In this document: positions 43,578-55,976 of the stretch, piece by piece | Layout of the letters: every line of letters starts with the position of its first letter | Position numbering within the stretch: the first letter of the stretch is position 1 | Program-made: the position numbers and the translations under genes | Assembly (NCBI RefSeq): GCF_017348835.2 | Contig: NZ_CP071375.1 | Source of the DNA: Escherichia coli | GTDB lineage: Bacteria; Pseudomonadota; Gammaproteobacteria; Enterobacterales; Enterobacteriaceae | Length of the DNA: 64,000 nucleotides | Reading direction: 5' to 3' (one strand) | The notes under the pieces: model-generated | What the model was told of the DNA's origin: nothing | The model's database searches: none | Seen by the model: the letters and a program-made list of their open reading frames with translations, nothing else

Positions 43578-44939
43578 TCAGAAGAACAGTGACGGATCGC
43601 CCGCCCGTTTGGTCAGGCGACCGTTTGCCATAATGCCCATGCTTTCCAGCCAGCGTTCAAACTCCGGTGACGGGCGCAGGTTGAGTAACTGACGCACAGT
43701 GGCGGTATCGTGGAATGCGGTGGTCTGGTAATTGAGCATGATGTCATCACCCAGCGGCATCCCCATGATGTAGTTGCAGCCTGCGGTGGCGAGCAGGATC
43801 ATCAGGTTTTCGTTGAGGTTCTGGTCAGCGTCAGCGTGGTTGGTGTAACAGCAGTCACAGCCCATAGAGATGCCGCTCAGCTTGCCCATAAAGTGATCTT
43901 CTAAGCCCGCACGAATAATCTGGCGGTCATTGTAGAGATACTCCGGCCCAATAAAGCCGACCACGGTGTTGACGATAAACGGATCGTAATGACGCGCCAG
44001 CCCGTAGTTACGCGCTTCCATGGTCACCTGGTCTGCGCCGTAGTTGGCACCCGCCGACAGCGCCGAACCTTGCCCGGTTTCGAAGTAGAGGCAGTTTTCC
44101 CCGGCGATACGGTTGAACTCTGCACCCACTGCGCGCGCTTCGTCGAGCATCGCCAGTTCCACGCCAAACTCTTTCAGCCCTTTTTCACTGCCACAGATAC
44201 TCTGGAAAATCAGCCCGCCTGGTGCGCCACGACGAATCGCTTCGATCTGGGTGGTGACGTGCGCCAGTACGCAGCCCTGAGTTGGGATGTTGAATTTGTC
44301 GATCACGCCATAGATGGTGTCCAGCACGCGGCTTAAGTTTTCCACGTCGTCAGTTACCGGGTTGACGCCGATCACCGCATCGCCCACCCCGAAGGAAAGC
44401 CCTTCGTAGATTTGCGCGGCGATACTTTGCACGTCGTCACGGGTGTCATTTGGCTGCAAACGGGCGCTAAAGGTGCCCGGAATACCGATGGTGGTATTGG
44501 CCTTTTTGATTACCGGCATTTTCTTCGCGCCGTAGATCAGGTCCGCGTTGGAGCAAATCTTCGCTACCGCCGCGACCACTTCCGAGGTCAGCCCTTTGCG
44601 GGTAAAGGCAATGTCGTCCACGCTGGTTTCATCGCTCAGCACATACTCACGCAGTTCGCTGATGCTCCAGTTTTTAATCTGGTTGTAGGCCGTTTCGTTA
44701 ACATCGTCCTGAATCAGCCGCGTCACGCAGTCATCTTCATAGGCAATCACCGGATTATTGCGGATGTCCGCTACGGTCATTTCCGACAACACCTGCTTTG
44801 CTGCCACGCGCTCCTGTGAGCTTGCCGCTGCAACGCCCGCCAGCACATCCCCCGAACGCAGTTCGTTGGCTTTAGCCAGCACCTCTTTTACATCCTTAAA
44901 CTGATATACATTGCCGAACAATGTGGTCTTTAGTTTCAT
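43578..44939 (-). CDS. eutB: ethanolamine ammonia-lyase large subunit
   Basis: ORF trimmed to MKLKTTLFGNVYQFKDVKEV... start (ATG complement 44937-44939), 453 aa. Confidence 0.93.
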   Translation of the reverse strand: MKLKTTLFGNVYQFKDVKEVLAKANELRSGDVLAGVAAASSQERVAAKQVLSEMTVADIRNNPVIAYEDDCVTRLIQDDVNETAYNQIKNWSISELREYVLSDETSVDDIAFTRKGLTSEVVAAVAKICSNADLIYGAKKMPVIKKANTTIGIPGTFSARLQPNDTRDDVQSIAAQIYEGLSFGVGDAVIGVNPVTDDVENLSRVLDTIYGVIDKFNIPTQGCVLAHVTTQIEAIRRGAPGGLIFQSICGSEKGLKEFGVELAMLDEARAVGAEFNRIAGENCLYFETGQGSALSAGANYGADQVTMEARNYGLARHYDPFIVNTVVGFIGPEYLYNDRQIIRAGLEDHFMGKLSGISMGCDCCYTNHADADQNLNENLMILLATAGCNYIMGMPLGDDIMLNYQTTAFHDTATVRQLLNLRPSPEFERWLESMGIMANGRLTKRAGDPSLFF

Positions 44940-45127
44940 AAGTCGTTCCCTCAGGAAGAAGTGATGAGTGACATTTTTCACAGCCTTCAAACAATTCTAT
45001 TTCATCGTTAACCCTTGTCCTGTAAGGTAATTACCTTAGTACGCCCGCTATTCATCCTGCCGAACGCAACCGAACGCGCCGGATACATGAGCGGGGTTAT
45101 CGAGTCGTTAGATCGAGGTATCCGGTT

Positions 45128-46333
45128 TTGAGCAAGACACCACTGACAGCAAAGGCCATAGAGGCCGCACAACCGCAGGACAAGCCCTATAAACTCACCG
45201 ATTCACAGACACCTGGCCTGTTTTTGCTGGTCCATCCCAACGGCAGCAAATACTGGCGATTCCGGTATTGGATAGACAAGAAGGAGCGGTTACAGGCTAT
45301 TGGGGTGTATCCGCTGATTAGCCTCAAGGAAGCCCGCAAACGCGCCACAGAGAGCCGTTTACTGATAGCCCAGGGAATTGACCCAATGGATTTGGCACGC
45401 AAGGAGAAAGCCATTGATGCTCTTAATGCTATCGCCAGTTTTAAAGCTGTAGCAGAAGACTGGATGGCTACCAAGGTGAGCGGATGGAGTGAGAGCTATA
45501 CAAAGCAGGTCAGATCGGCACTAGAGAAAGATGTTTACCCCGTGCTAGGTAAGCGGTCGATAGTGGATATAACGGCCCGTGACGTGCTGGCGTTACTACA
45601 GAAAAAGGAGCGCACCGCACCGGAACAAGCCAGGAAATTACGCCAGCGTATCGGGGAGATCTTCAAATTTGCCGTTATCACTGAACTGGTTAACCGGAAT
45701 CCGGTTGCAGATCTGGATACGGCACTGAAAGCCAGACGCCCAGGCCATAACGCGTGGATACCGATTAATGAAATTCCGGCCTTCTACAAAGCCCTTGAGA
45801 GAGCTGGGAGCGTTCAGATTCAGACGGCAATACTTTTGCTCATCCTCACAGCTTTGAGGACGGCAGAATTGCGCCTGATGCGCTGGGAATGGGTAGATCT
45901 GCAATCGGCAACAATCACATTGCCCGCTGAAGTCATGAAGGCCCGCCGACCGCATGTTGTCCCGCTATCCCGGCAGGCGGTCGAGCTATTACAGGACCAG
46001 TTTACCCGCAGCGGATACAGTGCTTTCGTCTTTCCTGGCCGATTCATGGACAAGCCACTTTCAGCCAGTGCCATCCTTAAAGCCCTGGAGCGTATCGGAT
46101 ACAAGTCGATAGCCACAGGCCACGGCTGGCGGACCACCTTTTCAACGGCGCTTAATGAGTCCGGCAGGTACTCACCAGACTGGATCGAAATCCAACTGGC
46201 CCACGTTCCGAAAGGCGTGCGCGGTGTTTATAACCAGGCGGCCTACCTGAAGCAACGACGGGCCATGATGCAGGATTATAGCGACTGTATTGATTCAATA
46301 CTGGCTGGTGACGGTAATCCACTTGAACCGTGA
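45128..46333 (+). CDS. intZ: P4-type tyrosine integrase
   Basis: 401-aa ORF (TTG start in the ORF track); N-terminal arm-binding-type domain (DKPYKLTDSQTPGLFLLVHPNGSKYWRFRYW), catalytic region with HGWR and terminal ...GVYNQAAYLKQRRAMMQ tyrosine motif. The symbol is assigned by position only. Confidence 0.85.
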   Translation: MSKTPLTAKAIEAAQPQDKPYKLTDSQTPGLFLLVHPNGSKYWRFRYWIDKKERLQAIGVYPLISLKEARKRATESRLLIAQGIDPMDLARKEKAIDALNAIASFKAVAEDWMATKVSGWSESYTKQVRSALEKDVYPVLGKRSIVDITARDVLALLQKKERTAPEQARKLRQRIGEIFKFAVITELVNRNPVADLDTALKARRPGHNAWIPINEIPAFYKALERAGSVQIQTAILLLILTALRTAELRLMRWEWVDLQSATITLPAEVMKARRPHVVPLSRQAVELLQDQFTRSGYSAFVFPGRFMDKPLSASAILKALERIGYKSIATGHGWRTTFSTALNESGRYSPDWIEIQLAHVPKGVRGVYNQAAYLKQRRAMMQDYSDCIDSILAGDGNPLEP

Positions 46334-46884
46334 ACTATAAGGCCGGGTTTATACTCAATATCGACGGTTGAAGCGCTCAAAAAACAACCGTGACAACCGT
46401 CACAAATATGCAATGTCAATGATCTGAATCAATAAATTGCCAATTCTTCGTTTCCACTTTCGAATGAAAGCAAGATGCAGAAAAATAAATCACCATGAAA
46501 TCATGTACTTATTAATTTTGACCAAATGGTCCAAAATATCCTCGGTGAATCCATGCTTGCCACAGCCAGATGATTAATATTTAACCCATGACTTTCGAAT
46601 GAAAGTAAATTGATAAAAAAGTCAGTGTACACTAACTAAATCGAATATTTTTTGCGCTATGTTTGAATGATAATTGAGCAAAACTTTCGCAAGGTGTGAC
46701 GATGTGAGTAATTAATTTTAACTCTACAATAAACCCATCCCGACAGGGATGGTACCTGGAGCGGAGCGAGAGGGACCATCCCCCTGTTTTTAGTCTTTTG
46801 AAGTTAGTTTTTTAAGGGATTAAATAATTTTGCCTCAAATGAGACCACACCATACAAGGCCAAAAACAATCAGTATTGCGTGGA

Positions 46885-47400
46885 TCAGGCTGGTTTTTTA
46901 ACTATATACCCCGTATGCCAAGGATTCTGATCGCGCGGCATCGGGTCCGCCTTGATAGACTCATAAAACTTATCAGCCATCTCAGCCACAAACTGTACAG
47001 AGGATTCGAACTCAGCGTTTTTGTGTGCGGGAGGAAACCAGAAGTCTAACACGCCAGCATTTCTATTTTTACATACAGCGTATATAAGATAAGCATCAGA
47101 TGTAGGGGTAACTTTTTCGAAACCACCGGGACCATAACGACCAGTAGACCAGTCATCCCAGCATTGTTCTGTCCCGCTATAGCCGTACTGATTGGTATAA
47201 AGACCAATATTTACATGGACTTTACGTAAGTGGATAGGATATACACACGGGGGTTTATGGAAAAGAGTATCCTTTCCAAAATCAGGATGATGTCCATATC
47301 TCCAATGATAAATAAACGAATCCTTAAAGCTCTTTAATTCATCGTTTGTTTTAAACTTATTATCACTGTAGACCTTACCAATAAATTCATTCTGGACCAT
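46885..47400 (-). CDS. YafO-like toxin-family protein (putative toxin of a two-gene module)
   Basis: 171-aa ORF from ATG (complement 47398-47400); motifs DFGKDTLF, PIHLRKVHVNIG, SDAYLIYAVCK, FWFPPAHKNAE and VAEMADKF line up with YafO motifs as I recall them (FGRDALY, HIHL, EAHLVYCQG, KPEPHKLA, MAEAF). Confidence 0.5.
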   Translation of the reverse strand: MVQNEFIGKVYSDNKFKTNDELKSFKDSFIYHWRYGHHPDFGKDTLFHKPPCVYPIHLRKVHVNIGLYTNQYGYSGTEQCWDDWSTGRYGPGGFEKVTPTSDAYLIYAVCKNRNAGVLDFWFPPAHKNAEFESSVQFVAEMADKFYESIKADPMPRDQNPWHTGYIVKKPA

Positions 47401-47734
47401 CAAAGCTTACACTCTTTAAGCGTTCTTCTCGTGAATCGAATAAATCTTTTGATAAATCACACGCTTGTGTGAACGTCATTTTTTTTACTCGTGGTACAGC
47501 CATAGGCGAGGCCGCATTCATCACTTTGTTTTCTTCGTGATCGAGAGTAGCAGTGTAGCGAAACATGACACTTTTACCGCGCACCAACTGGTATCCTAGT
47601 CGATACGCTAACGCGTCAAGATGCGTCAGACGATTTGTTTTACGCAAGCCAGTCATAGCTTTTGGCTTACGAGTGCGCACAGAAAGGGATTTCCCTTCTC
47701 GCTTAGTCGCAAACAAAGTAACTATTTTTGACAT
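47387..47734 (-). CDS. small basic protein, putative partner/antitoxin of the downstream toxin-like gene
   Basis: 115-aa ORF from ATG (complement 47732-47734) with GGAGAT RBS; stop lies 10 bp before the downstream gene start; Lys/Arg-rich N-terminus. Confidence 0.45.
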   Translation of the reverse strand: MSKIVTLFATKREGKSLSVRTRKPKAMTGLRKTNRLTHLDALAYRLGYQLVRGKSVMFRYTATLDHEENKVMNAASPMAVPRVKKMTFTQACDLSKDLFDSREERLKSVSFDGPE

Positions 47735-48706
47735 GGTATCTCCTGACATCAATCTGCTAAGGCCATTGTGCCTTGTTTGAATAGTAAACTATTCGCCCAA
47801 TCTACACCAGTGATTTTCTTGACGCCAATAGTAAAGGCAGCATTGCCCACCACAGGCAGACAATGAGACTTCAGATAGCGCACCTTCTATCGCGCACGCG
47901 CTCAATAAAACCAACGACACCGCCATCCTGCCTGACCGATGTTTTTAACCAGCGTATACAGAGAAACAGACAACAGCATGAAATCAGCGTATATCCAGGT
48001 GCAGACGGCACTATCACACAACGCACAGCAGGCTGAGGTGAACACTCAAGCAACTTTATCCCCGCCACCGACCACCGCAAACTATCATGACCGTGCCAAA
48101 TTCAAAAGGAATGGCCCATATAACGCGATGAACACACATAAGCGCTACACTTGCTTACCTGAAAACTTCACAGCGTCACAGCGCGTTTTAGACACGTTAA
48201 AATTAATGAGATTTCATTAAATTTTCACCAGACACCGGAACAAGCCTATAAATCAAAAATGAATTACCGACATGCGCCGCTGGCGTTCACAGGAAGAATC
48301 AATAACTTAGGCCAATGGCGAAAGTTAAACAAAATCAAGAACTTGCAGAAATGCAGGATGAAGCAGCCGATGTGCCCCGTTGGATTTTACCAGAAGAATC
48401 AACAAGTTAGACTCGGTGATTTCACCGACTCCTGCCGGACTACTGACCAGATCGAACCATTCCCCAAATTTGGGGAGAGCAAACCACACGCAGATCCTGC
48501 CAGGCTATTTCATCCCACCGCATCACGTATTTGCACACTTCCCCGCTGACGTGCTCATTTTGATAACGAGTTACCCGCTAGCCCTTGCCACATCACCATT
48601 TGTCGCGCTTTGACTAAATTAGCGACGTGCCTGTTATAGCGATACGCTAGTTATGCAGAAAGCGCGACATATCCAGCAACCATGCACCCTACAGAGGAAT
48701 TGAATC

Positions 48707-49159
48707 ATGCGAGACATAGACTGGTCAGCTATCCCTTTCGATGATTTACCGCCCTGGCATCTGGACTGGGACGTAGACCAACGCGAAAACGCGACATATC
48801 CAGCAACCACCAGCATTACAGCGATGCGCCCCGTAAAGCCTAAGAAATACCAGGCAACCGACCTGATAGCTCACCTCAAAGCTATTGGCGGCGTATTTAC
48901 CGGAAGCAAAGACACGCTTGCACATGAAGTATGGCCCCGGAAGACGCCAGCGGGTCGAACCGTTTTACGCTTACTGACCGAACTGTCAGACAACGGCGAC
49001 GCTGTAGTGATTAACCGTGGTCGTTGTGGCGTGGAAGTTATTCTGACGCCGAAGAACAGGGCACAGACGCCTGAATTAAGCGCACCCAAGCAAATGCATA
49101 GCCAAAAATTAAGTCCAGCAGAACGCGTTATATCGCTTTTAAATGGCATCGGATTTTAA
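48707..49159 (+). CDS. hypothetical island protein
   Basis: 150-aa ORF with GAGGA RBS 8 nt upstream of ATG; no recognisable family. Confidence 0.5.
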   Translation: MRDIDWSAIPFDDLPPWHLDWDVDQRENATYPATTSITAMRPVKPKKYQATDLIAHLKAIGGVFTGSKDTLAHEVWPRKTPAGRTVLRLLTELSDNGDAVVINRGRCGVEVILTPKNRAQTPELSAPKQMHSQKLSPAERVISLLNGIGF

Positions 49160-49185
49160 TTAATTTTGATGTGGTAATTGCAGGC

Positions 49186-49212
49186 AAAAAAATCCCGCCG
49201 GAGAAAGCGGGG
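49186..49212 (-). terminator. rho-independent terminator oriented for minus-strand transcripts
   Basis: Minus strand reads CCCCGCtttctccgGCGGGattttttt (on plus strand the A-run precedes the hairpin). Confidence 0.55.
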
Positions 49213-49446
49213 AAGTGAAATCAATCGTTGTAGTTATAGATCACATTTTGGAGTTGAGGATGGCTAATCCTCGCTAATATTATCGCGCCGTTATGTGATG
49301 GGCGCAATTATTTCTTACTAATTAAAAGTTTTGTAAATATTACAGAATATCCCTTTTCACTATATGGTAAAAGATGTGAAACAGGGACATGAGGAATATA
49401 ATATTAAGTATCAACAGTAATGTTGGTCTTTAATTTCATTCAGGGC

Positions 49447-49489
49447 GCGGTGAGGGTTTTCTCCATATTTTTCCTCACCGCTACTTTTT
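49447..49489 (+). promoter_or_regulatory. terminator/attenuator-like hairpin in the alpA leader
   Basis: GCGGTGAGG-17 nt loop-CCTCACCGC followed by tacttttt, immediately upstream of the alpA RBS. Confidence 0.45.
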
Positions 49490-49501
49490 CGAGGTGAGAA
49501 C

Positions 49502-49693
49502 ATGAATGATAGCGAATTAATGACGGTGAACGAGGTAGCCGCTTTATTCGGCGTTACCCGTCGGACAATATTCCGGTGGATGAACAAGATTAAAGGCTGG
49601 CCCGTCCCGGTCAGTCCGATTGGCTCAAGAATTAAGTTTATCCGATCTGAGATTTTGGAATTCTATAAAAACAAAGGCGCTCGCCACCAATGA
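49502..49693 (+). CDS. alpA: AlpA-family phage/island transcriptional regulator (excision control)
   Basis: 63-aa ORF MTVNEVAALFGVTRRTIFRWMNKIKGWPVPVSPIGSRIKFIRSEILEF: typical AlpA HTH signature; RBS GAGGTGAG. Confidence 0.8.
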   Translation: MNDSELMTVNEVAALFGVTRRTIFRWMNKIKGWPVPVSPIGSRIKFIRSEILEFYKNKGARHQ

Positions 49694-49832
49694 AAACAGC
49701 TACTGAGATTATCAAATAACCTATTGATTTAAAAAGCTAGCTACCGCAATTTCTGAAGGAATAGGCAGCATGAAAATCAAAGCAAACACAATTAAAGAAA
49801 TAACATCAATCAAAGTAAAAGGAGCAGATGCC

Positions 49833-50096
49833 ATGCATTCATTAGATAGTTATTTTCAGCGCACGACAGCCCCTAAATCAGCCGCCCAGGAACGCCGTGA
49901 GGAATTCCAGGAAAAAGTGATGCGTTCTGCTGATTATATTGCGGACAAGTTCGCGGAAACGGTTCGGCCACTTGTTGATGAAGTAGCTGATAAACTTCAG
50001 TCTGAAATGCCGGAAGACATGGAAGGCACTGCAAAGGCGCGACTCCTTTTTGAATTAAGTCGTCGTTTCGGCGTGTCAATAAGCACTTTTAAATAA
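49833..50096 (+). CDS. hypothetical small acidic protein
   Basis: 87-aa ORF from ATG 49833 with AAAGGAG RBS 8 nt upstream. Confidence 0.5.
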   Translation: MHSLDSYFQRTTAPKSAAQERREEFQEKVMRSADYIADKFAETVRPLVDEVADKLQSEMPEDMEGTAKARLLFELSRRFGVSISTFK

Positions 50097-50113
50097 TCGG
50101 AGGAGGAAAGACA

Positions 50114-50656
50114 ATGGACGCATTTGATGTACTGACAAACAAAGGCGATGAACTGGTAGCACAGCGTGATAAAACCGCCAACGAAGGGGAACGCGCACTG
50201 TTAAATAAGCAGATTAAAGCGATCCGTATGGCCCAGTTTAAATTAATCAGCAATGAAGTTATCGAAAAAATTAAACCGCAGATCCCACAAATCGTTGCTG
50301 ACGCTATTAAAGCCGCCGGACTGGAGAAACGCATTGCCGGGCTGAAAACGAACGCAGAGAAAATGGAGATGCACAAACAGAGCGGTGCTCCGACTCCGGA
50401 TGAGTACTTCTCACCGGATGCTGAGTTTATGGCGCAGGTTGAGGAACGTCTGGGTAGCTGTCTCACCGAGGAACAGTGTCGCTATTTTGATGGAGTGGAT
50501 AGTTCGGCAGGTATTGACCTGAACTCGTATTTCGGTCGTGAAATTGAGCATTTTGATGCCGCCCCGTCTATGCCGGAGCCAGAACCAGAAATGGCCGCCG
50601 ATCCTGAAGCTGAGCAACGGAAACGCGTATTCAATGCGATAGGGATTCGGTACTGA
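50114..50656 (+). CDS. hypothetical protein (phage-associated)
   Basis: 180-aa ORF with strong GGAGGAGG RBS; acidic C-terminus. Confidence 0.55.
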   Translation: MDAFDVLTNKGDELVAQRDKTANEGERALLNKQIKAIRMAQFKLISNEVIEKIKPQIPQIVADAIKAAGLEKRIAGLKTNAEKMEMHKQSGAPTPDEYFSPDAEFMAQVEERLGSCLTEEQCRYFDGVDSSAGIDLNSYFGREIEHFDAAPSMPEPEPEMAADPEAEQRKRVFNAIGIRY

Positions 50657-50664
50657 TCGGATAA

Positions 50665-50688
50665 AAGAAAGCCGGGAATTACCCCGGC
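50665..50688 (-). terminator. hairpin terminator, T-tract on the minus strand
   Basis: GCCGGGaattacCCCGGC preceded on plus strand by ataaaagaaa (minus strand: hairpin then tttcttttat). Confidence 0.45.
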
Positions 50689-50707
50689 TGACTTAACAAT
50701 GTGACCA

Positions 50708-51082
50708 ATGAACAAATCGGACAAGACAAACAGGATAAGCAGTCTCGAAACAATGTTCGGGAACTATATTAGCACAAGTCCGGAGAAAATCATCATGTTG
50801 GCACTACGCATCATGCAGGGCATCGCTAAGACCCTCGCAGAACATGTCTTAGACCTGAAACATTCGCCACTGAGCAAACAGGCCATGAAGCGCCAAACGC
50901 TTCGTCTGTGGGCTGAATATTCGCTTGGAACTATCAATAAAATCATCGACATGAAATCGGGGCCGAGCAACCAGAGCGCGGAGGAAATGGAGTTCATCAG
51001 GCGTTTAATTCTCATTCGCAGAGACATTCATAGCCAGTTACACAGCGTGGGAATCGATATTAATGATGGGACGGGCGATTAA
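50708..51082 (+). CDS. hypothetical protein
   Basis: 124-aa ORF; weak RBS. Confidence 0.45.
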   Translation: MNKSDKTNRISSLETMFGNYISTSPEKIIMLALRIMQGIAKTLAEHVLDLKHSPLSKQAMKRQTLRLWAEYSLGTINKIIDMKSGPSNQSAEEMEFIRRLILIRRDIHSQLHSVGIDINDGTGD

Positions 51083-51120
51083 TTTTCGGACAAGTACTAT
51101 GCGCGCGCGAGGAGCTGAAC

Positions 51121-51351
51121 ATGAAGCAAGATATTGCAGACAGGCTGGAGATACTCGAAGGCCAGCGGGCAGAAGCGAAACAACTACGTAAGCAGGCCAG
51201 AAGAGCGCACAGGAACTACGAAGCAGAATCACTGACCGCTTTCATCAACTTCACAAACCGTTGCATCCTGGAGTGTTACAGGGAGGATGCAGAAAACTGG
51301 CTGGATTCATTGCCAGAACAGACTCTGCATGAACTGAACGGCGACCAGTAA
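51121..51351 (+). CDS. hypothetical small protein
   Basis: 76-aa ORF with GAGGAG RBS 6 nt upstream. Confidence 0.5.
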   Translation: MKQDIADRLEILEGQRAEAKQLRKQARRAHRNYEAESLTAFINFTNRCILECYREDAENWLDSLPEQTLHELNGDQ

Positions 51352-51638
51352 ATAAATCCAGTACGTTTCCCGCAGTGCGCATAACGTACATTATGTGAAA
51401 AACGATATGGATATATATCAGTCTGACTTCAATGAAGAAAACGGACTTCCAGCATCAACCACAAAGAAGTATGGCTAATGCAGCTTTATAAGCCATTGAT
51501 TCTATTAAACGATATTTTTTGTGATTGGTTGAAGCAAACCAAAACACGATGCCACTGAAGCGTTAATAAACTGTTTCAATGTGAAATTATCAGAGTAAAG
51601 AACAATTTGGAGGGTCCGCAAACGCGGATAACAATATC

Positions 51639-53819
51639 ATGAGTGGAAATCTCGGGACCATATACTACGAGGTCGATGCCCGCACTGGGAAACTTCTTAT
51701 CGCGCAACAGCAGGCGGAAGAGGCGTTCGATCGCATTGAACGAGGAGCGCGGAAGGCTGATAGCGGCGTCAAAAAGTTAAATACGCAGATGACTAAAACA
51801 TCAGCCGCAGTCAAAACCAACCTTTCCCCGGCAATCCGTAACGCATCATACCAGATCGCAGACCTTGCCACTCAATTGCAGATGGGCGGTAATGCGCTTC
51901 AGGCGTTCGCTGTGCAGGGTGCGCAGTTATTAGCTGGCTTTGGCACGATGGGCGCGGTAGCTGGCGCGGTGCTGGCTATCGCTGGCGCTATGGGTGGAAG
52001 CCTGGCACAAGGCGCTGATAGTGCAGCCGGATCGGTTGAGTATCTGGACAAGGCGATCACCAAACTGAACGAGGTCATAGCTGTAAATGAACAGGGCGTG
52101 ACGGTGATGAGTGATAGTTACGCCAGACTTTCTAAGGTTAACGCTGAAGTAGCGAAACAGATGCGGAACATGGCTGAAATTCAGGCAATTGCAGCACTGC
52201 GTGACCTGAAAGAACAGGCAAGCCAGGCACAGGGGGAAATGTCGTCATTCTGGCGCAGCTTGCAGGGTGGTAAAGCTGACGCAGCAGCAGCAGCACAGGC
52301 ACTTGATGATCTTGGAATCACAACCAACGACTACAAAGAGGCGATAGCCATACTGAACGCCAATCAGCCGGATACACAGGCGCAAATGGCAACGCTAGCT
52401 AAGTCCGTGATGTACATAGGCGAGGAATACAACCTGACAAACCAGCAAGCCTACGAGTTCATCCGAGCACTAAATAGGGCCGCGACAACGAGAACGCCGG
52501 AAGCCATGCAGGAACTATCGGGCTTCATGCAGGTATTGCTACAGGACACCGAAAACGGTAACGAGGCATTCCGTGAACTGGCTATCAAATTCGTTGATGC
52601 ACAAACCAAAGGCGCAATGCTGGAAGACCAACTAAACCGACTGAAAGGCGCTATCAGTGACGCAGCCACAGAAGCCAGAAACGCCAATTTTACCACTATG
52701 CTCAACACCGTCGCCGCACGCCTGGCAGCCATTGAGCAAGGTTGGGAGGCAGGCGTTAGGATGCAGATGAAAGCCCAGGGCTACACTGAAGAGCAGATCG
52801 ATGAATATGTGAACATGGAAACGGCGTACCGTGATGCAAAAGCCGCTTTGGACGAGAAGAATAAGGCCGACCGTGAAGCTATTGCGCTATCCAAACGCCA
52901 GGCCGCAGAAGCAGCCCGCAAGGCAAAACAGGAAGAAGCTGAAGCACAACGCAAGGCCAAACAGTTAGCCGCGCAGAAGGAGCAGGCAGGACGCTTTACG
53001 CAGCAAGTAATGACGGAATACCTGACGACCGTAGATCCGGCAACAGGCAAGGCGTTTAACCCTGCCGCACAAGTAGAAATGCAGGAGCAGCAGAAGAAAG
53101 CGGCGCTGGATAAATACAGACAGTTGGGCGTCCTGGATGAACAGCAGTACCAGAACACGCTAACCGCCATCCAGAAAACCGCGTCAATGCGCCGCCAGCA
53201 AATCATCAAAGACGAGGCCGACACGTTATTCAACAATCAGCAACAGTTGATCGGCACATTTGGCGATTTCTTCGGTGAACTGTCTGGAGTCATAGCAGAC
53301 GGTGCAGGTGAGCAAAACGCGGCATATCAAGCGCTATTTGCTGTGCAGAAGGGTTTTGTATTGGCATCAGCAGCTTTAAGCCTTCAGAAAGCGCTTGCTG
53401 AGGCAAACGCCTTGCCTTTCCCGGCTAATCTTCCGGCCTATGCGCAAGCTATGTCAGCAGGCACGCAGATCATTTCAGCTATTCGTGGAATAGCTTTCGG
53501 TGGCGGACGCTACAACGGCGGCGCGGTTGGTGCTGGCAACCTGTACCGCGTGGGTGAACACGGTAAGCCTGAGATATTCAAGGCGAACAATGGCAGCCAG
53601 TACATGATCCCAGGTGATAACGGTCGCGTGATAAGTAATCGTGACATTGGCGGCGGTGGCGGCGTAACAATCAACAGCCCGATCACCATTAACACTACGA
53701 ATGGCTTCAGTGATGAAGACTCAAGGCGTCTTGAGGAAGCGATGAAGCGCGTAGCTATGGGCGTTTGCAGGCAGGAGTCAACCAGACCGGGAGGAATGTT
53801 AGCCCCGCGCCGTCGTTAA
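51639..53819 (+). CDS. phage tail tape-measure-like protein
   Basis: 726-aa ORF: glycine/alanine-rich hydrophobic segment (LLAGFGTMGAVAGAVLAIAGAMGGSLAQGADSAAG), long A/Q/E/K-rich coiled-coil middle, C-terminal G-rich region with YRVGEHGKPE motif. Confidence 0.7.
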   Translation: MSGNLGTIYYEVDARTGKLLIAQQQAEEAFDRIERGARKADSGVKKLNTQMTKTSAAVKTNLSPAIRNASYQIADLATQLQMGGNALQAFAVQGAQLLAGFGTMGAVAGAVLAIAGAMGGSLAQGADSAAGSVEYLDKAITKLNEVIAVNEQGVTVMSDSYARLSKVNAEVAKQMRNMAEIQAIAALRDLKEQASQAQGEMSSFWRSLQGGKADAAAAAQALDDLGITTNDYKEAIAILNANQPDTQAQMATLAKSVMYIGEEYNLTNQQAYEFIRALNRAATTRTPEAMQELSGFMQVLLQDTENGNEAFRELAIKFVDAQTKGAMLEDQLNRLKGAISDAATEARNANFTTMLNTVAARLAAIEQGWEAGVRMQMKAQGYTEEQIDEYVNMETAYRDAKAALDEKNKADREAIALSKRQAAEAARKAKQEEAEAQRKAKQLAAQKEQAGRFTQQVMTEYLTTVDPATGKAFNPAAQVEMQEQQKKAALDKYRQLGVLDEQQYQNTLTAIQKTASMRRQQIIKDEADTLFNNQQQLIGTFGDFFGELSGVIADGAGEQNAAYQALFAVQKGFVLASAALSLQKALAEANALPFPANLPAYAQAMSAGTQIISAIRGIAFGGGRYNGGAVGAGNLYRVGEHGKPEIFKANNGSQYMIPGDNGRVISNRDIGGGGGVTINSPITINTTNGFSDEDSRRLEEAMKRVAMGVCRQESTRPGGMLAPRRR

Positions 53820-54317
53820 CCAAATCCCACGCCAGGGGGATAGACTGGCGGCCTTTCAATTCCGTTGAAACGACGGAATCAAACACCCCGATTCAGGGTA
53901 TTTAAACGTCGCGTTTCACGACATTTATCTAAGTCATTGATTTATATTGTAACTCATAATTGAGTTGCGCCGACCATCCCGCCACAAACGCTCCTACGCA
54001 AAAATTCCCTCACAATTACCCTGCCAATTTTCCAGATTTCACGTATACGCGCCTATATCCCCGCCACCGGATACACGCCCGCTTATACCGGATACTTTTA
54101 TGCCATCATTATTAAATCCATTAATAATCATCAAACCATAATTAGCACAACTTATAATCGAACAAAAAACACACAACATTGATAATGATTTTTTCTGGTT
54201 ATACTTATCTAAAAAAGTGGTATGGGAAGTAACTTATTGTTTTGTAATTACAAATTTATTGCGTGGTCAGATGAACAGACTTGCGCACCTCCCGAAAAAC
54301 ACGCGAAAATCGAAGTG

Positions 54318-54427
54318 TTCTTTCTTTTTTTGTTTTTTATTTTTTTATTTTCTCTTTTTCTTCTCTTTCCGGTTCTCTTCTTTTTCTGGTTTTGGTTTTT
54401 TCCTTTTTTATTTTTATTCTTTCTTCA
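54318..54427. repeat. polypyrimidine (T/C) low-complexity tract
   Basis: ~110 bp almost exclusively T and C on the plus strand (tctttctttttttgttttttatttttttattttctc...). Confidence 0.9.
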
Positions 54428-54572
54428 GGGTTGTGATCAAACACACCAAAACATTTTCGCCACAAAAGCGTTAATTTCATCCTGCCAGACCATTCACTTT
54501 CACCGGATACACAGCCGGATATAATCCCGCTAACACCCAGCCACCCAGCATCACGCCTGATAACTACCGTAT

Positions 54573-55976
54573 TCAGGAAGGAAATGCGAGTGATTTCACC
54601 GTCACCGGCACAACCGATCCGCCAAAAAGAGGCGTACCAATGTCGATATAGTCCCCCGCGCGGACAATCACTTCGTCAATGACTGCCAACGGGAGTTGTT
54701 GTAGCTGTGGGCGCAACAACATGCCCAGAGCTTTACCAAAGTCCTGCCCGGCCACCACCAGCAGGGGATGCGGATTCGGAAAACGCGCGACGAAATCGAC
54801 CAACGCGTTGATGACCGTCAGTACCGCGGCGTAACGCACAGGCAGCGAGGCGGGAAGCGCCAGCACGTACGCGTCAGTTTTGGGATCAAGATCCAGCTGA
54901 ATCAGCGCCTGTTGCCAGGCACTCACCAGATCCGTTTCATCAATCGGGATCGCCACCGGCAAATTGCGCAGCGGCAGTTGTACGCCCTCCAGCCAGATTG
55001 TGCTGCCAGAGAGCGAAAGGGTATGTGCACCCGCGCCAATCACCGTGGCGCGTACGGTTTGCGCCGGAAACTGCACGTTCATCTCACGCAGGCGCGGATG
55101 GTCATGCAGCGCCGTTGCCAGAAGCGGGCCAATATCGGCAAAACAGAACGGGTCGGCGGGCTGGTGGCGATAACATTCGCCCACGCCGCCAGAAAGCGTA
55201 ATGATTTCGGGCGTAACACCTGCGGGCAGCAAACCGGTTTGCATTAATGCCTGCGCGAGCGGCGAAAGCGTTCCGTCAATCACTTCGACAATCAGCTCTG
55301 CCATCCGCCAGGTAACCTGCACCAGCTGCGCGCCGGTCAGCGAACGGGCGTCGGTGCCTGCGCCGAAGCACTCATCCACAATCATCTGCCCCGGTTTATG
55401 AGCGTAAACCACGCGCCCCTGGCTGTCGGTTTCCAGCAGGCGACCACCGACGTTGAGGCAGGCAGTGCCGCTGATTTTTCCGGCATCGAACAGGGCGTAG
55501 TTCGCGGTGCCACCGCCGATGTCGATATTCAGTACCCGACACAGCCGTTGTTCAGAAAGGGTTTGCGCCCCGGCACCGTGACCGGCGATCACGGATTCGA
55601 GGTGCGGCCCGGCGCTGGCGACGACAAAATCGCCCAGCGACTGAGAGAGCGCCATCACCGCCGGGCGAGCATTGCGGGTTTTCGCGCTTTCACCGGTGAT
55701 GATGATGGCACCAGAATCAACGCTTTCCGGCGCAATGCCCGCAGCCTGATATTGCTCTAAAATCAGCGATTTCAGTTCCGCTTCTTTTAAACCACCCTGT
55801 TTATCGACAGGGGTAAAGAACACCGGGCTTTGCCAGCTAATTTCGCGTTTGATGAATTCGTAGCGCGGCACCTGCGACACCGCCGCACGGTTAACCAGTT
55901 CCAGGTGGGAGAAAATCACCTGGGTGGTGGTGGTGCCGATATCGATACCGACGCTCAGTAGCTGGCGAGTGTTCAC
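54573..55976 (-). CDS. eutA: ethanolamine ammonia-lyase reactivating factor
   Basis: 467-aa ORF ending ...VTVKSLAFPS; operon context. Confidence 0.9.
   Translation of the reverse strand: MNTRQLLSVGIDIGTTTTQVIFSHLELVNRAAVSQVPRYEFIKREISWQSPVFFTPVDKQGGLKEAELKSLILEQYQAAGIAPESVDSGAIIITGESAKTRNARPAVMALSQSLGDFVVASAGPHLESVIAGHGAGAQTLSEQRLCRVLNIDIGGGTANYALFDAGKISGTACLNVGGRLLETDSQGRVVYAHKPGQMIVDECFGAGTDARSLTGAQLVQVTWRMAELIVEVIDGTLSPLAQALMQTGLLPAGVTPEIITLSGGVGECYRHQPADPFCFADIGPLLATALHDHPRLREMNVQFPAQTVRATVIGAGAHTLSLSGSTIWLEGVQLPLRNLPVAIPIDETDLVSAWQQALIQLDLDPKTDAYVLALPASLPVRYAAVLTVINALVDFVARFPNPHPLLVVAGQDFGKALGMLLRPQLQQLPLAVIDEVIVRAGDYIDIGTPLFGGSVVPVTVKSLAFPS

Follow-up and report, generated by a model that had tools for sequence, protein, structure and literature searches.

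In the window, that is, the whole stretch of 64,000 nucleotides of Escherichia coli DNA analyzed here, the genes eutA and eutB are both intact but lie 9.6 kb apart, and the genes placed between them are mostly encoded on the opposite strand. This arrangement raises the question of how the intervening DNA entered the locus, which of the repeated sequences near its two ends contains the crossover, and whether the 3′ end of eutA belongs to the host or was brought in by the element. Our analysis indicates that the DNA in between is very probably an integrative island of the CPZ-55 family, 9622 bp long, with attL and attR as its two junctions, integrated by the tyrosine recombinase IntZ at the 8-bp sequence TCAGGAAG. 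Below, we lay out the evidence from empty sites, from related islands and from the integrase, along with the alternatives that bear on each.

Boundaries of the Island and the Empty Site

When a 12001-bp query was compared with island-free E. coli, it spanned 2379 bp in each such genome listed, a difference of exactly 9622 bp, and most complete E. coli genomes matched only the flanks of this 12-kb query. The exact 8-mer TCAGGAAG forms a direct repeat at 44951-44958 and 54573-54580 of the 64-kb window, and an island-free locus (L002) holds a single copy of it, flanked by the same bacterial sequences that are found at 44950 and 54581. The empty junction of L002 reads ...TTTCATAAGTCGTTCCC-TCAGGAAG-GAAATGCGAGTGATTTCACC..., the left junction of the window reads ...GTTCCC-TCAGGAAG-AAGTGATGAGTGAC... 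and the right junction reads ...CTACCGTAT-TCAGGAAG-GAAATGCGAG...; one copy in the empty site, one copy at each junction and precise boundaries are the pattern of a site-specific element. The empty-site comparison, which the first-pass annotation of this DNA had suggested, therefore delimits the island to 44951-54572 and identifies the core as the eutA stop codon plus the last five coding nucleotides. It also supports the proposals of that annotation that an element integrated at the 3′ end of eutA, since the empty site puts the insertion exactly at TCAGGAAG, and that the first repeat pair contains the crossover and sets the boundaries. The two eutA-end strings that had been listed for the junctions both exist, but their common part begins at 44951 rather than at 44949, 2 nt away. 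These exact boundaries matter little beyond correct annotation. The features of the junctions and of the recombination genes are as follows.

44951..54572, whole integrated island, 9622 bp with one core copy; a cargo variant of the CPZ-55 family
44951..44958, attL core TCAGGAAG, on the minus strand CTTCCTGA; the start of the eutB Shine-Dalgarno region comes from it
54573..54580, attR core TCAGGAAG; equals the eutA stop (TGA, minus strand) plus the last 5 coding nt
44937..44950, minus strand, eutB start (ATG 44939-44937) and 11-nt spacer with the RBS; unchanged bacterial DNA
54581..54610, minus strand, native eutA 3′ coding end (...VTVKSLAFPS-stop); bacterial DNA, not supplied by the element
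54573-55976, minus strand, eutA ORF at the right junction
44959..45127, left (P′) arm, from the core to the intZ start; element DNA, with related arms in other E. coli
44959..44985, element-borne eutA-like stretch AAGTGATGAGTGACATTTTTCACAGCC, on the P′ side and adjoining the core
54431..54572, right (P) arm, the element side of the right junction
45128..46333, plus strand, intZ, P4-type tyrosine integrase (Pfam Arm-DNA-bind_3, Phage_int_M and Phage_integrase; PHROG 1)
49502..49693, plus strand, 63-aa helix-turn-helix protein (phrog_66 "excisionase and transcriptional regulator", E=1.7e-9)

From the same comparison it follows that the end of eutA is native, that the RBS and start of eutB are untouched and that the copy at the left junction is element DNA. 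The segment 44937-44950 is identical in the L002 empty site and in Klebsiella, so that the RBS and start of eutB were rightly described as intact after the left repeat, and the eutA 3′ end is the same in empty E. coli, in occupied E. coli and in Klebsiella. The eutA 3′ end and the eutA-eutB junction of Klebsiella pneumoniae agree with those of E. coli at every base of the last 60 nt, so that the conservation of attB extends across genera. The base composition changes along with the junctions, the eut genes having 55-59% GC and the island 39-52%, and the stretch that holds the island is 100% identical to E. coli strain PE164.

A related left arm was found in 410 of 5426 complete E. coli genomes, at one place in each and always on the chromosome; many of these 410 are K-12 derivatives, and the cargo of the window's island occurs in only 8 of the 5426. 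Eight members were examined, namely K-12 (L003), ECONIH5 (L004), EFF60 (L005), B-3008 (L006), 1094 (L007), LC-1302-2020 (L015) and the loci L013 and L014. All eight lie between eutB and eutA with intZ adjoining eutB, and their cargo differs widely. Six variants with different cargo have the core, both arms and the eutA/eutB site in common, and the attL ends of L013 and L014 share the core and the site with an Int that is only 68-69% identical.

The Integrase and the Cargo

IntZ of the window is 91% identical to K-12 IntZ over 401 aa, and intZ is also the name given by PGAP in the identical strain PE164. Its catalytic domain is complete, with a PF00589 match over positions 3-169 of 172, and the R / H-x-x-R / H / Y motifs are present in the translation (LRTAE, HGWRTT, LAH...Y). 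Outside the IntZ clade, the best-matching integrases were only 41-46% identical, and a search of contigs representing one genome per species returned a sole relative with 41% identity. The 63-aa helix-turn-helix protein scored 23.6 bits against TIGR01764 "excise", below the 28.8-bit cutoff; with such weak excisionase-family matches, it is a candidate recombination directionality factor or regulator.

In the cargo, a 726-aa ORF at 51639-53819 bears a strong resemblance to tape-measure PHROGs of phages (phrog_1538, E=2.8e-103). Most non-K-12 variants keep this ORF along with the helix-turn-helix gene and four small ORFs upstream; no other tail or head genes accompany it in the island, and the element may be either a prophage remnant or satellite-like. 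On the minus strand at 46885-47752, a YafO-family toxin gene overlaps an upstream 115-aa ORF, a putative antitoxin with no family match, and this module, which is specific to the cargo variant of the window, lies where the GC content of the island is lowest (39%). Between genes, direct repeats were observed at 48267-48410 (44 nt at 75% identity, 100-bp spacing) and at 48658-48809 (25 nt at 96% identity, 127-bp spacing), the first set including IHF-consensus matches at 48297, 48333 and 48397; the repeat stretch 48267-48809 may represent a regulatory or iteron-like region. Immediately inward of the right arm, at 54300-54430, about 130 bp are almost pure pyrimidine (T-rich) on the plus strand. 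This tract is kept in ECONIH5, EFF60, 1094 and the plasmid pMAR2 and absent from K-12, B-3008 and LC-1302-2020, which have a terminator-like hairpin (CCCGGCCCCGC...GCCGGGTTTTT) in its place, and the 47-aa ORF that PGAP annotates opposite the tract is probably spurious.

Repeated Motifs in the Two Arms

A second repeat pair, TTCATCCTGCC...CCGGATACA, had been noted near both ends of the insert and is indeed present there, within a few nucleotides of where it had been placed. It had also been taken for candidate att cores that define the element boundaries, a reading that does not hold: the repeats are internal to the island, their motifs sitting 100-130 bp inside its left end and 50-97 bp inside its right end, and they therefore do not represent the crossover. 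They are better read as arm-type sites, and the individual copies are as follows.

45051..45061, plus strand, left copy of TTCATCCTGCC, exact; not conserved in K-12 or B-3008
54476..54486, plus strand, right copy of TTCATCCTGCC, exact; only in the type of right arm seen in the window, ECONIH5 and EFF60
45079..45087, plus strand, CCGGATACA, candidate arm-type IntZ site, direct; conserved throughout the variants, even where Int is only 68-69% identical
45118..45126, minus strand, CCGGATACC, candidate arm-type site, inverted; directly before the intZ start
54503..54523, plus strand, CCGGATACAcagCCGGATATA, two candidate arm-type sites in tandem, at a distance of 58-70 bp from the core

At the position of TTCATCCTGCC, the left arm of B-3008 has ATATCCGGTAT, an inverted CCGGATA, and the 11-mer itself may be a degenerate inverted arm site or a chance match. 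CCGGATACA has its right copy at 54503-54511, within the tandem pair CCGGATACAcagCCGGATATA, which hardly varies in the pMAR2 fragment or among six variants whose reconstructed attP sequences were aligned. In these six variants, the direct and inverted copies of the P′ arm are also nearly invariant, the inverted site CCGGATACC showing an invariant GGTATCCGG/GATATCCGG in all variants, and in the divergent left arms of L013 and L014 the CCGGATAYA motifs are the main blocks that survive. Throughout the 64 kb, CCGGATAYA occurs in five copies against 0.55 expected (about 9-fold), all of them in the island and on the plus strand. Short repeated motifs in both arms, serving as arm-type Int sites, characterize the attP organization of lambda and P4. 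Given the arm-binding domain of IntZ, the most likely reading of the CCGGATAYA repeats is as candidate arm-type sites for this N-terminal domain, and this set of candidate IntZ sites is a modest addition to the published description of CPZ-55.

A further pair of CCGGATAC motifs was observed at 54065-54096, about 500 bp inside the right end, where the two copies lie 21 bp apart (CACCGGATACACGCCCGCTTATACCGGATAC). This pair exhibits 83% identity over 23 nt with the arm-site pair at 54501-54523 and could consist of extra arm sites or be the relic of an earlier element's arm.

Origin of the Junction Repeats

The first-pass annotation had read the eutA-like stretch beside eutB as a diverged eutA 3′ end, in line with a model of the e14/icd or tRNA style in which the element brings a replacement eutA end and the original is left to degenerate on the far side. 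What speaks for this model is the 8-bp identity itself, extended marginally and on the eutA side only: the hexamer GAGTGA is shared in register by the left-junction stretch and attB at +8..+13 (P=0.0035), and a core-anchored gapped alignment of the eutA-side flank gave P=0.006-0.014 (about 0.01). On the other flank, the gapped attP/attB comparison detected no similarity (P=0.76), and only T.ATAA.T is shared in register, at -15..-8. Translation in the eutA frame can likewise be set out as a pseudo-end, stop-KMSLITSS-stop, beside the native KSLAFPS-stop. The end attached to eutA is, however, the same as the empty-site allele and the same in Klebsiella, and thus the gene-proximal end is not derived from the element. 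The diverged copy cannot be displaced host DNA because empty sites lack it and every variant of the element carries it, and the eutA end of Klebsiella, being the same as that of E. coli over the last 60 nt, offers no better match to it. The exact identity between attP and attB amounts to 8 bp and not to tens of bp, and since only these 8 identical bp are exchanged, no codon is replaced. Among members of the family that use the same attB, the resemblance weakens and is lost in the most divergent: the stretch AAGTGATGAGTGACATTTTTCACAGCC is not conserved in L013 and L014, and the right-flank match falls from 8 of 20 positions in the window to 6 of 20 in K-12 and 4-5 of 20 in L013 and L014. The alignment of the two junction regions that had been proposed as a check hence yields the exact 8-mer, whereas the similarity beyond it is marginal and is lost in the divergent members at the same site. 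We regard the replacement of the eutA end as very improbable. The opposite position, that beyond the 8-bp core all of the noted similarity, in the eutA-like stretch as well as in TTCATCCTGCC...CCGGATACA, is functionless chance, draws on the in-register match count of the eutA-side flanks of attP and attB (8 of 20 positions, P=0.10), on the lack of conservation of TTCATCCTGCC in the right arms of K-12, B-3008 and LC-1302-2020, and on the 45-nt composite alignment of the second repeats, whose score of 15 (shuffles, 10.4 ± 1.6) some shuffles surpassed, the highest reaching 17. Chance fails for CCGGATAYA, which is enriched about 9-fold, confined to the island and invariant amid diverged surroundings, and as an account of all of the similarity it appears quite unlikely. 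For the eutA-side flank, the extension beyond 8 bp would be at best a marginal relic or recognition element that the family does not require, and the GAGTGA resemblance of the attP flank to attB may be either chance or a relic or core-type recognition element.

The nature of the 8-mer itself has to be weighed as well, given that an 8-bp duplication of TCAGGAAG at the eutA stop has been reported for K-12 CPZ-55 and termed transposon-like (PMC6379469). An 8-bp direct repeat around an insert does look like a target-site duplication made by a transposase rather than an att core borne by the element. Against this, no transposase was found among the island's 10 ORFs, and the island ends, which agree at 10 of 40 positions, carry no terminal inverted repeats, while a tyrosine integrase with an arm-binding domain lies at the end of the island. 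The related left arms sit at one chromosomal place per genome, and the variants examined are inserted at the same nucleotide. A further argument comes from EPEC EAF plasmids such as pMAR2, which harbor a fragment of a related island with a gadC-like antiporter, murI (glutamate racemase), IS1, the T-rich tract and the right arm (L008 5880-6300, NC_011603.1 about 86960-87380; similar in H106 and H108-H110). This fragment ends in ...CCGTAT-TCAGGAAG, and exactly after the 8-mer it joins the interior of a Y-family polymerase gene; intact, that gene reads ...TCTCCCGCAG/TTGAGCCC (...CCCGCAG/TTGAGCCC) without TCAGGAAG. Because this target natively lacks the 8-mer that the element end still bears, TCAGGAAG travels with the element. 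The junction has the appearance of an IntZ event at a secondary site after which the left half was lost, the other half of the insertion (left arm, intZ and the 5′ part of the polymerase gene) being absent from the plasmid; it could in principle also be an illegitimate end-join that fell by chance at the core edge. Taken together, these observations favor TCAGGAAG as an element-borne att core, which is a modest addition to the published description of CPZ-55, and make a transposase-made target-site duplication extremely improbable.

Proposed Integration and Excision

For integration by IntZ at TCAGGAAG, the attP of the circular form is expected to comprise a P arm with two direct CCGGATAYA copies, the core TCAGGAAG, and a P′ arm with one direct and one inverted copy, followed by intZ. 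The predicted attP would read ...CTACCGTAT-TCAGGAAG-AAGTGATGAG..., and excision would restore an attB of ...GTTCCC-TCAGGAAG-GAAATGCG.... IntZ, presumably bound to the arm sites, would catalyze recombination of this attP with the chromosomal attB ...GTTCCC-TCAGGAAG-GAAATG..., the exchange taking place inside the 8-bp identity that overlaps the eutA stop codon. Because such an exchange would be conservative and confined to 8 identical bp, the end and stop of eutA and the RBS and start of eutB would be kept, with one core at each junction, and the eutA-like stretch beside eutB would correspond to the attP flank on the P′ side. A role for the helix-turn-helix protein in this process is conceivable. 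The arm-site and core-site assignments are predictions made from conservation and enrichment.

Searches for the circular form returned no occurrence of the attP junction CCGYAYTCAGGAAGAANNGATGA in viral contigs, and its 8 matches in metagenomes, none accompanied by other similarity to the island, are chance matches; the reconstructed 319-bp attP likewise had no match among phage records. No convincing dyad symmetry was detected around the core, nor any IHF consensus within about 200 bp of it, and the searched literature contained no biochemical data on IntZ sites. Excision of CPZ-55 has been quantified by qPCR at <1e-5 per cell (Wang et al., PMC3105296), a value compatible with functional attL and attR.

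Consequences for the eut Operon

Insertion at the eutA/eutB site in K-12 has been reported to keep the eut operon from being expressed in functional form (PMC7617246), and a different prophage has been described at the same site in a UPEC isolate (PMC6652756). In the window, a sigma-70-like match (AGGACA-16-TAGAAT) was observed on the minus strand at 45021->44994, pointing from the island toward eutB; it is a consensus match only, kept in five variants and weaker in K-12. The clean insertion, the complete integrase, the excisionase-like gene and this outward putative promoter have led us to consider whether the island might serve ethanolamine utilization as a reversible switch or as a module that re-wires it, with the T.ATAA.T and GAGTGA blocks as core-type sites of IntZ. 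Were this true, the operon would be re-formed upon excision, or eutBCLK-R would become independent of the main eut promoter through the outward one. We consider this reading unlikely, and retain integration of a CPZ-55-family island by IntZ as the account of the locus.

The CPZ-55 Family and Other Known Systems

As a cargo variant of CPZ-55, the cryptic prophage of K-12, the island belongs to a known kind of feature rather than a new one. The window and K-12 CPZ-55 (intZ, yffL-yffS) share their insertion point and the 8-bp core TCAGGAAG; the left arms are 80.6% identical over 165 nt and the right arms 80.3% over the last 71 nt, and the CCGGATAYA motifs occupy the same positions. Insertion at the eutA stop with TCAGGAAG, an IntZ orthologue at attL and homologous arms thus place the island in this family. 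In size and cargo the two diverge: the K-12 island measures 6790 bp compared with 9622 bp in the window, K-12 aligns with no more than 32% of the 12-kb query, and in the place of yffL-yffS, which are missing, the window carries the YafO-like toxin module, the excisionase-like helix-turn-helix gene and the 726-aa tape-measure-like gene. Because the K-12 cargo is missing, the island is a family member by its integration module and not the same prophage.

Rearrangements were observed in two of the variants. The integrase of LC-1302-2020 (L015 20050-21255), 74% identical overall, appears mosaic by eye in the alignment: its first ~80 residues, the arm-binding domain, are almost the same as in window IntZ and the remainder is far more diverged, which suggests recombination within int and fits the window-like left arm of this variant. 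In 1094 (L007 ~13019, NZ_LT883142.1), a deletion of ~207 bp between two CCGAACGCA repeats, corresponding to about 44852-45058 of the window, has taken away the 5′ end of eutB together with the attL core and 100 bp of the left arm from its start; this locks the island in, and the annotated eutB is 21 codons shorter.

Among other integrative islands, P4, CP4-57 and CPS-53 have Arm-DNA-bind_3/DUF4102 integrases of the same architecture as that of the window, and in P4-family islands the integrase gene adjoins one att site, as it does here. P4-family islands typically target the 3′ ends of tRNA or tmRNA genes, where identity blocks of at least 17 bp rebuild the gene end. The island of the window differs in that its target is the stop codon of a protein gene inside an operon and the identity extends over only 8 bp. 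It resembles e14, which is integrated at the 3′ end of the protein gene icd and leaves a gene-end-like sequence at its far junction (PMC6379469), a target and a far junction of the kind found here. The likeness has its limits, since the duplication made by e14 is a pseudo-icd of 163 bp and the functional gene end comes from the element, whereas in the window the duplication is 8 bp and the host end is kept, and the far-side "copy", unlike that of e14, is marginally similar DNA of the element itself.
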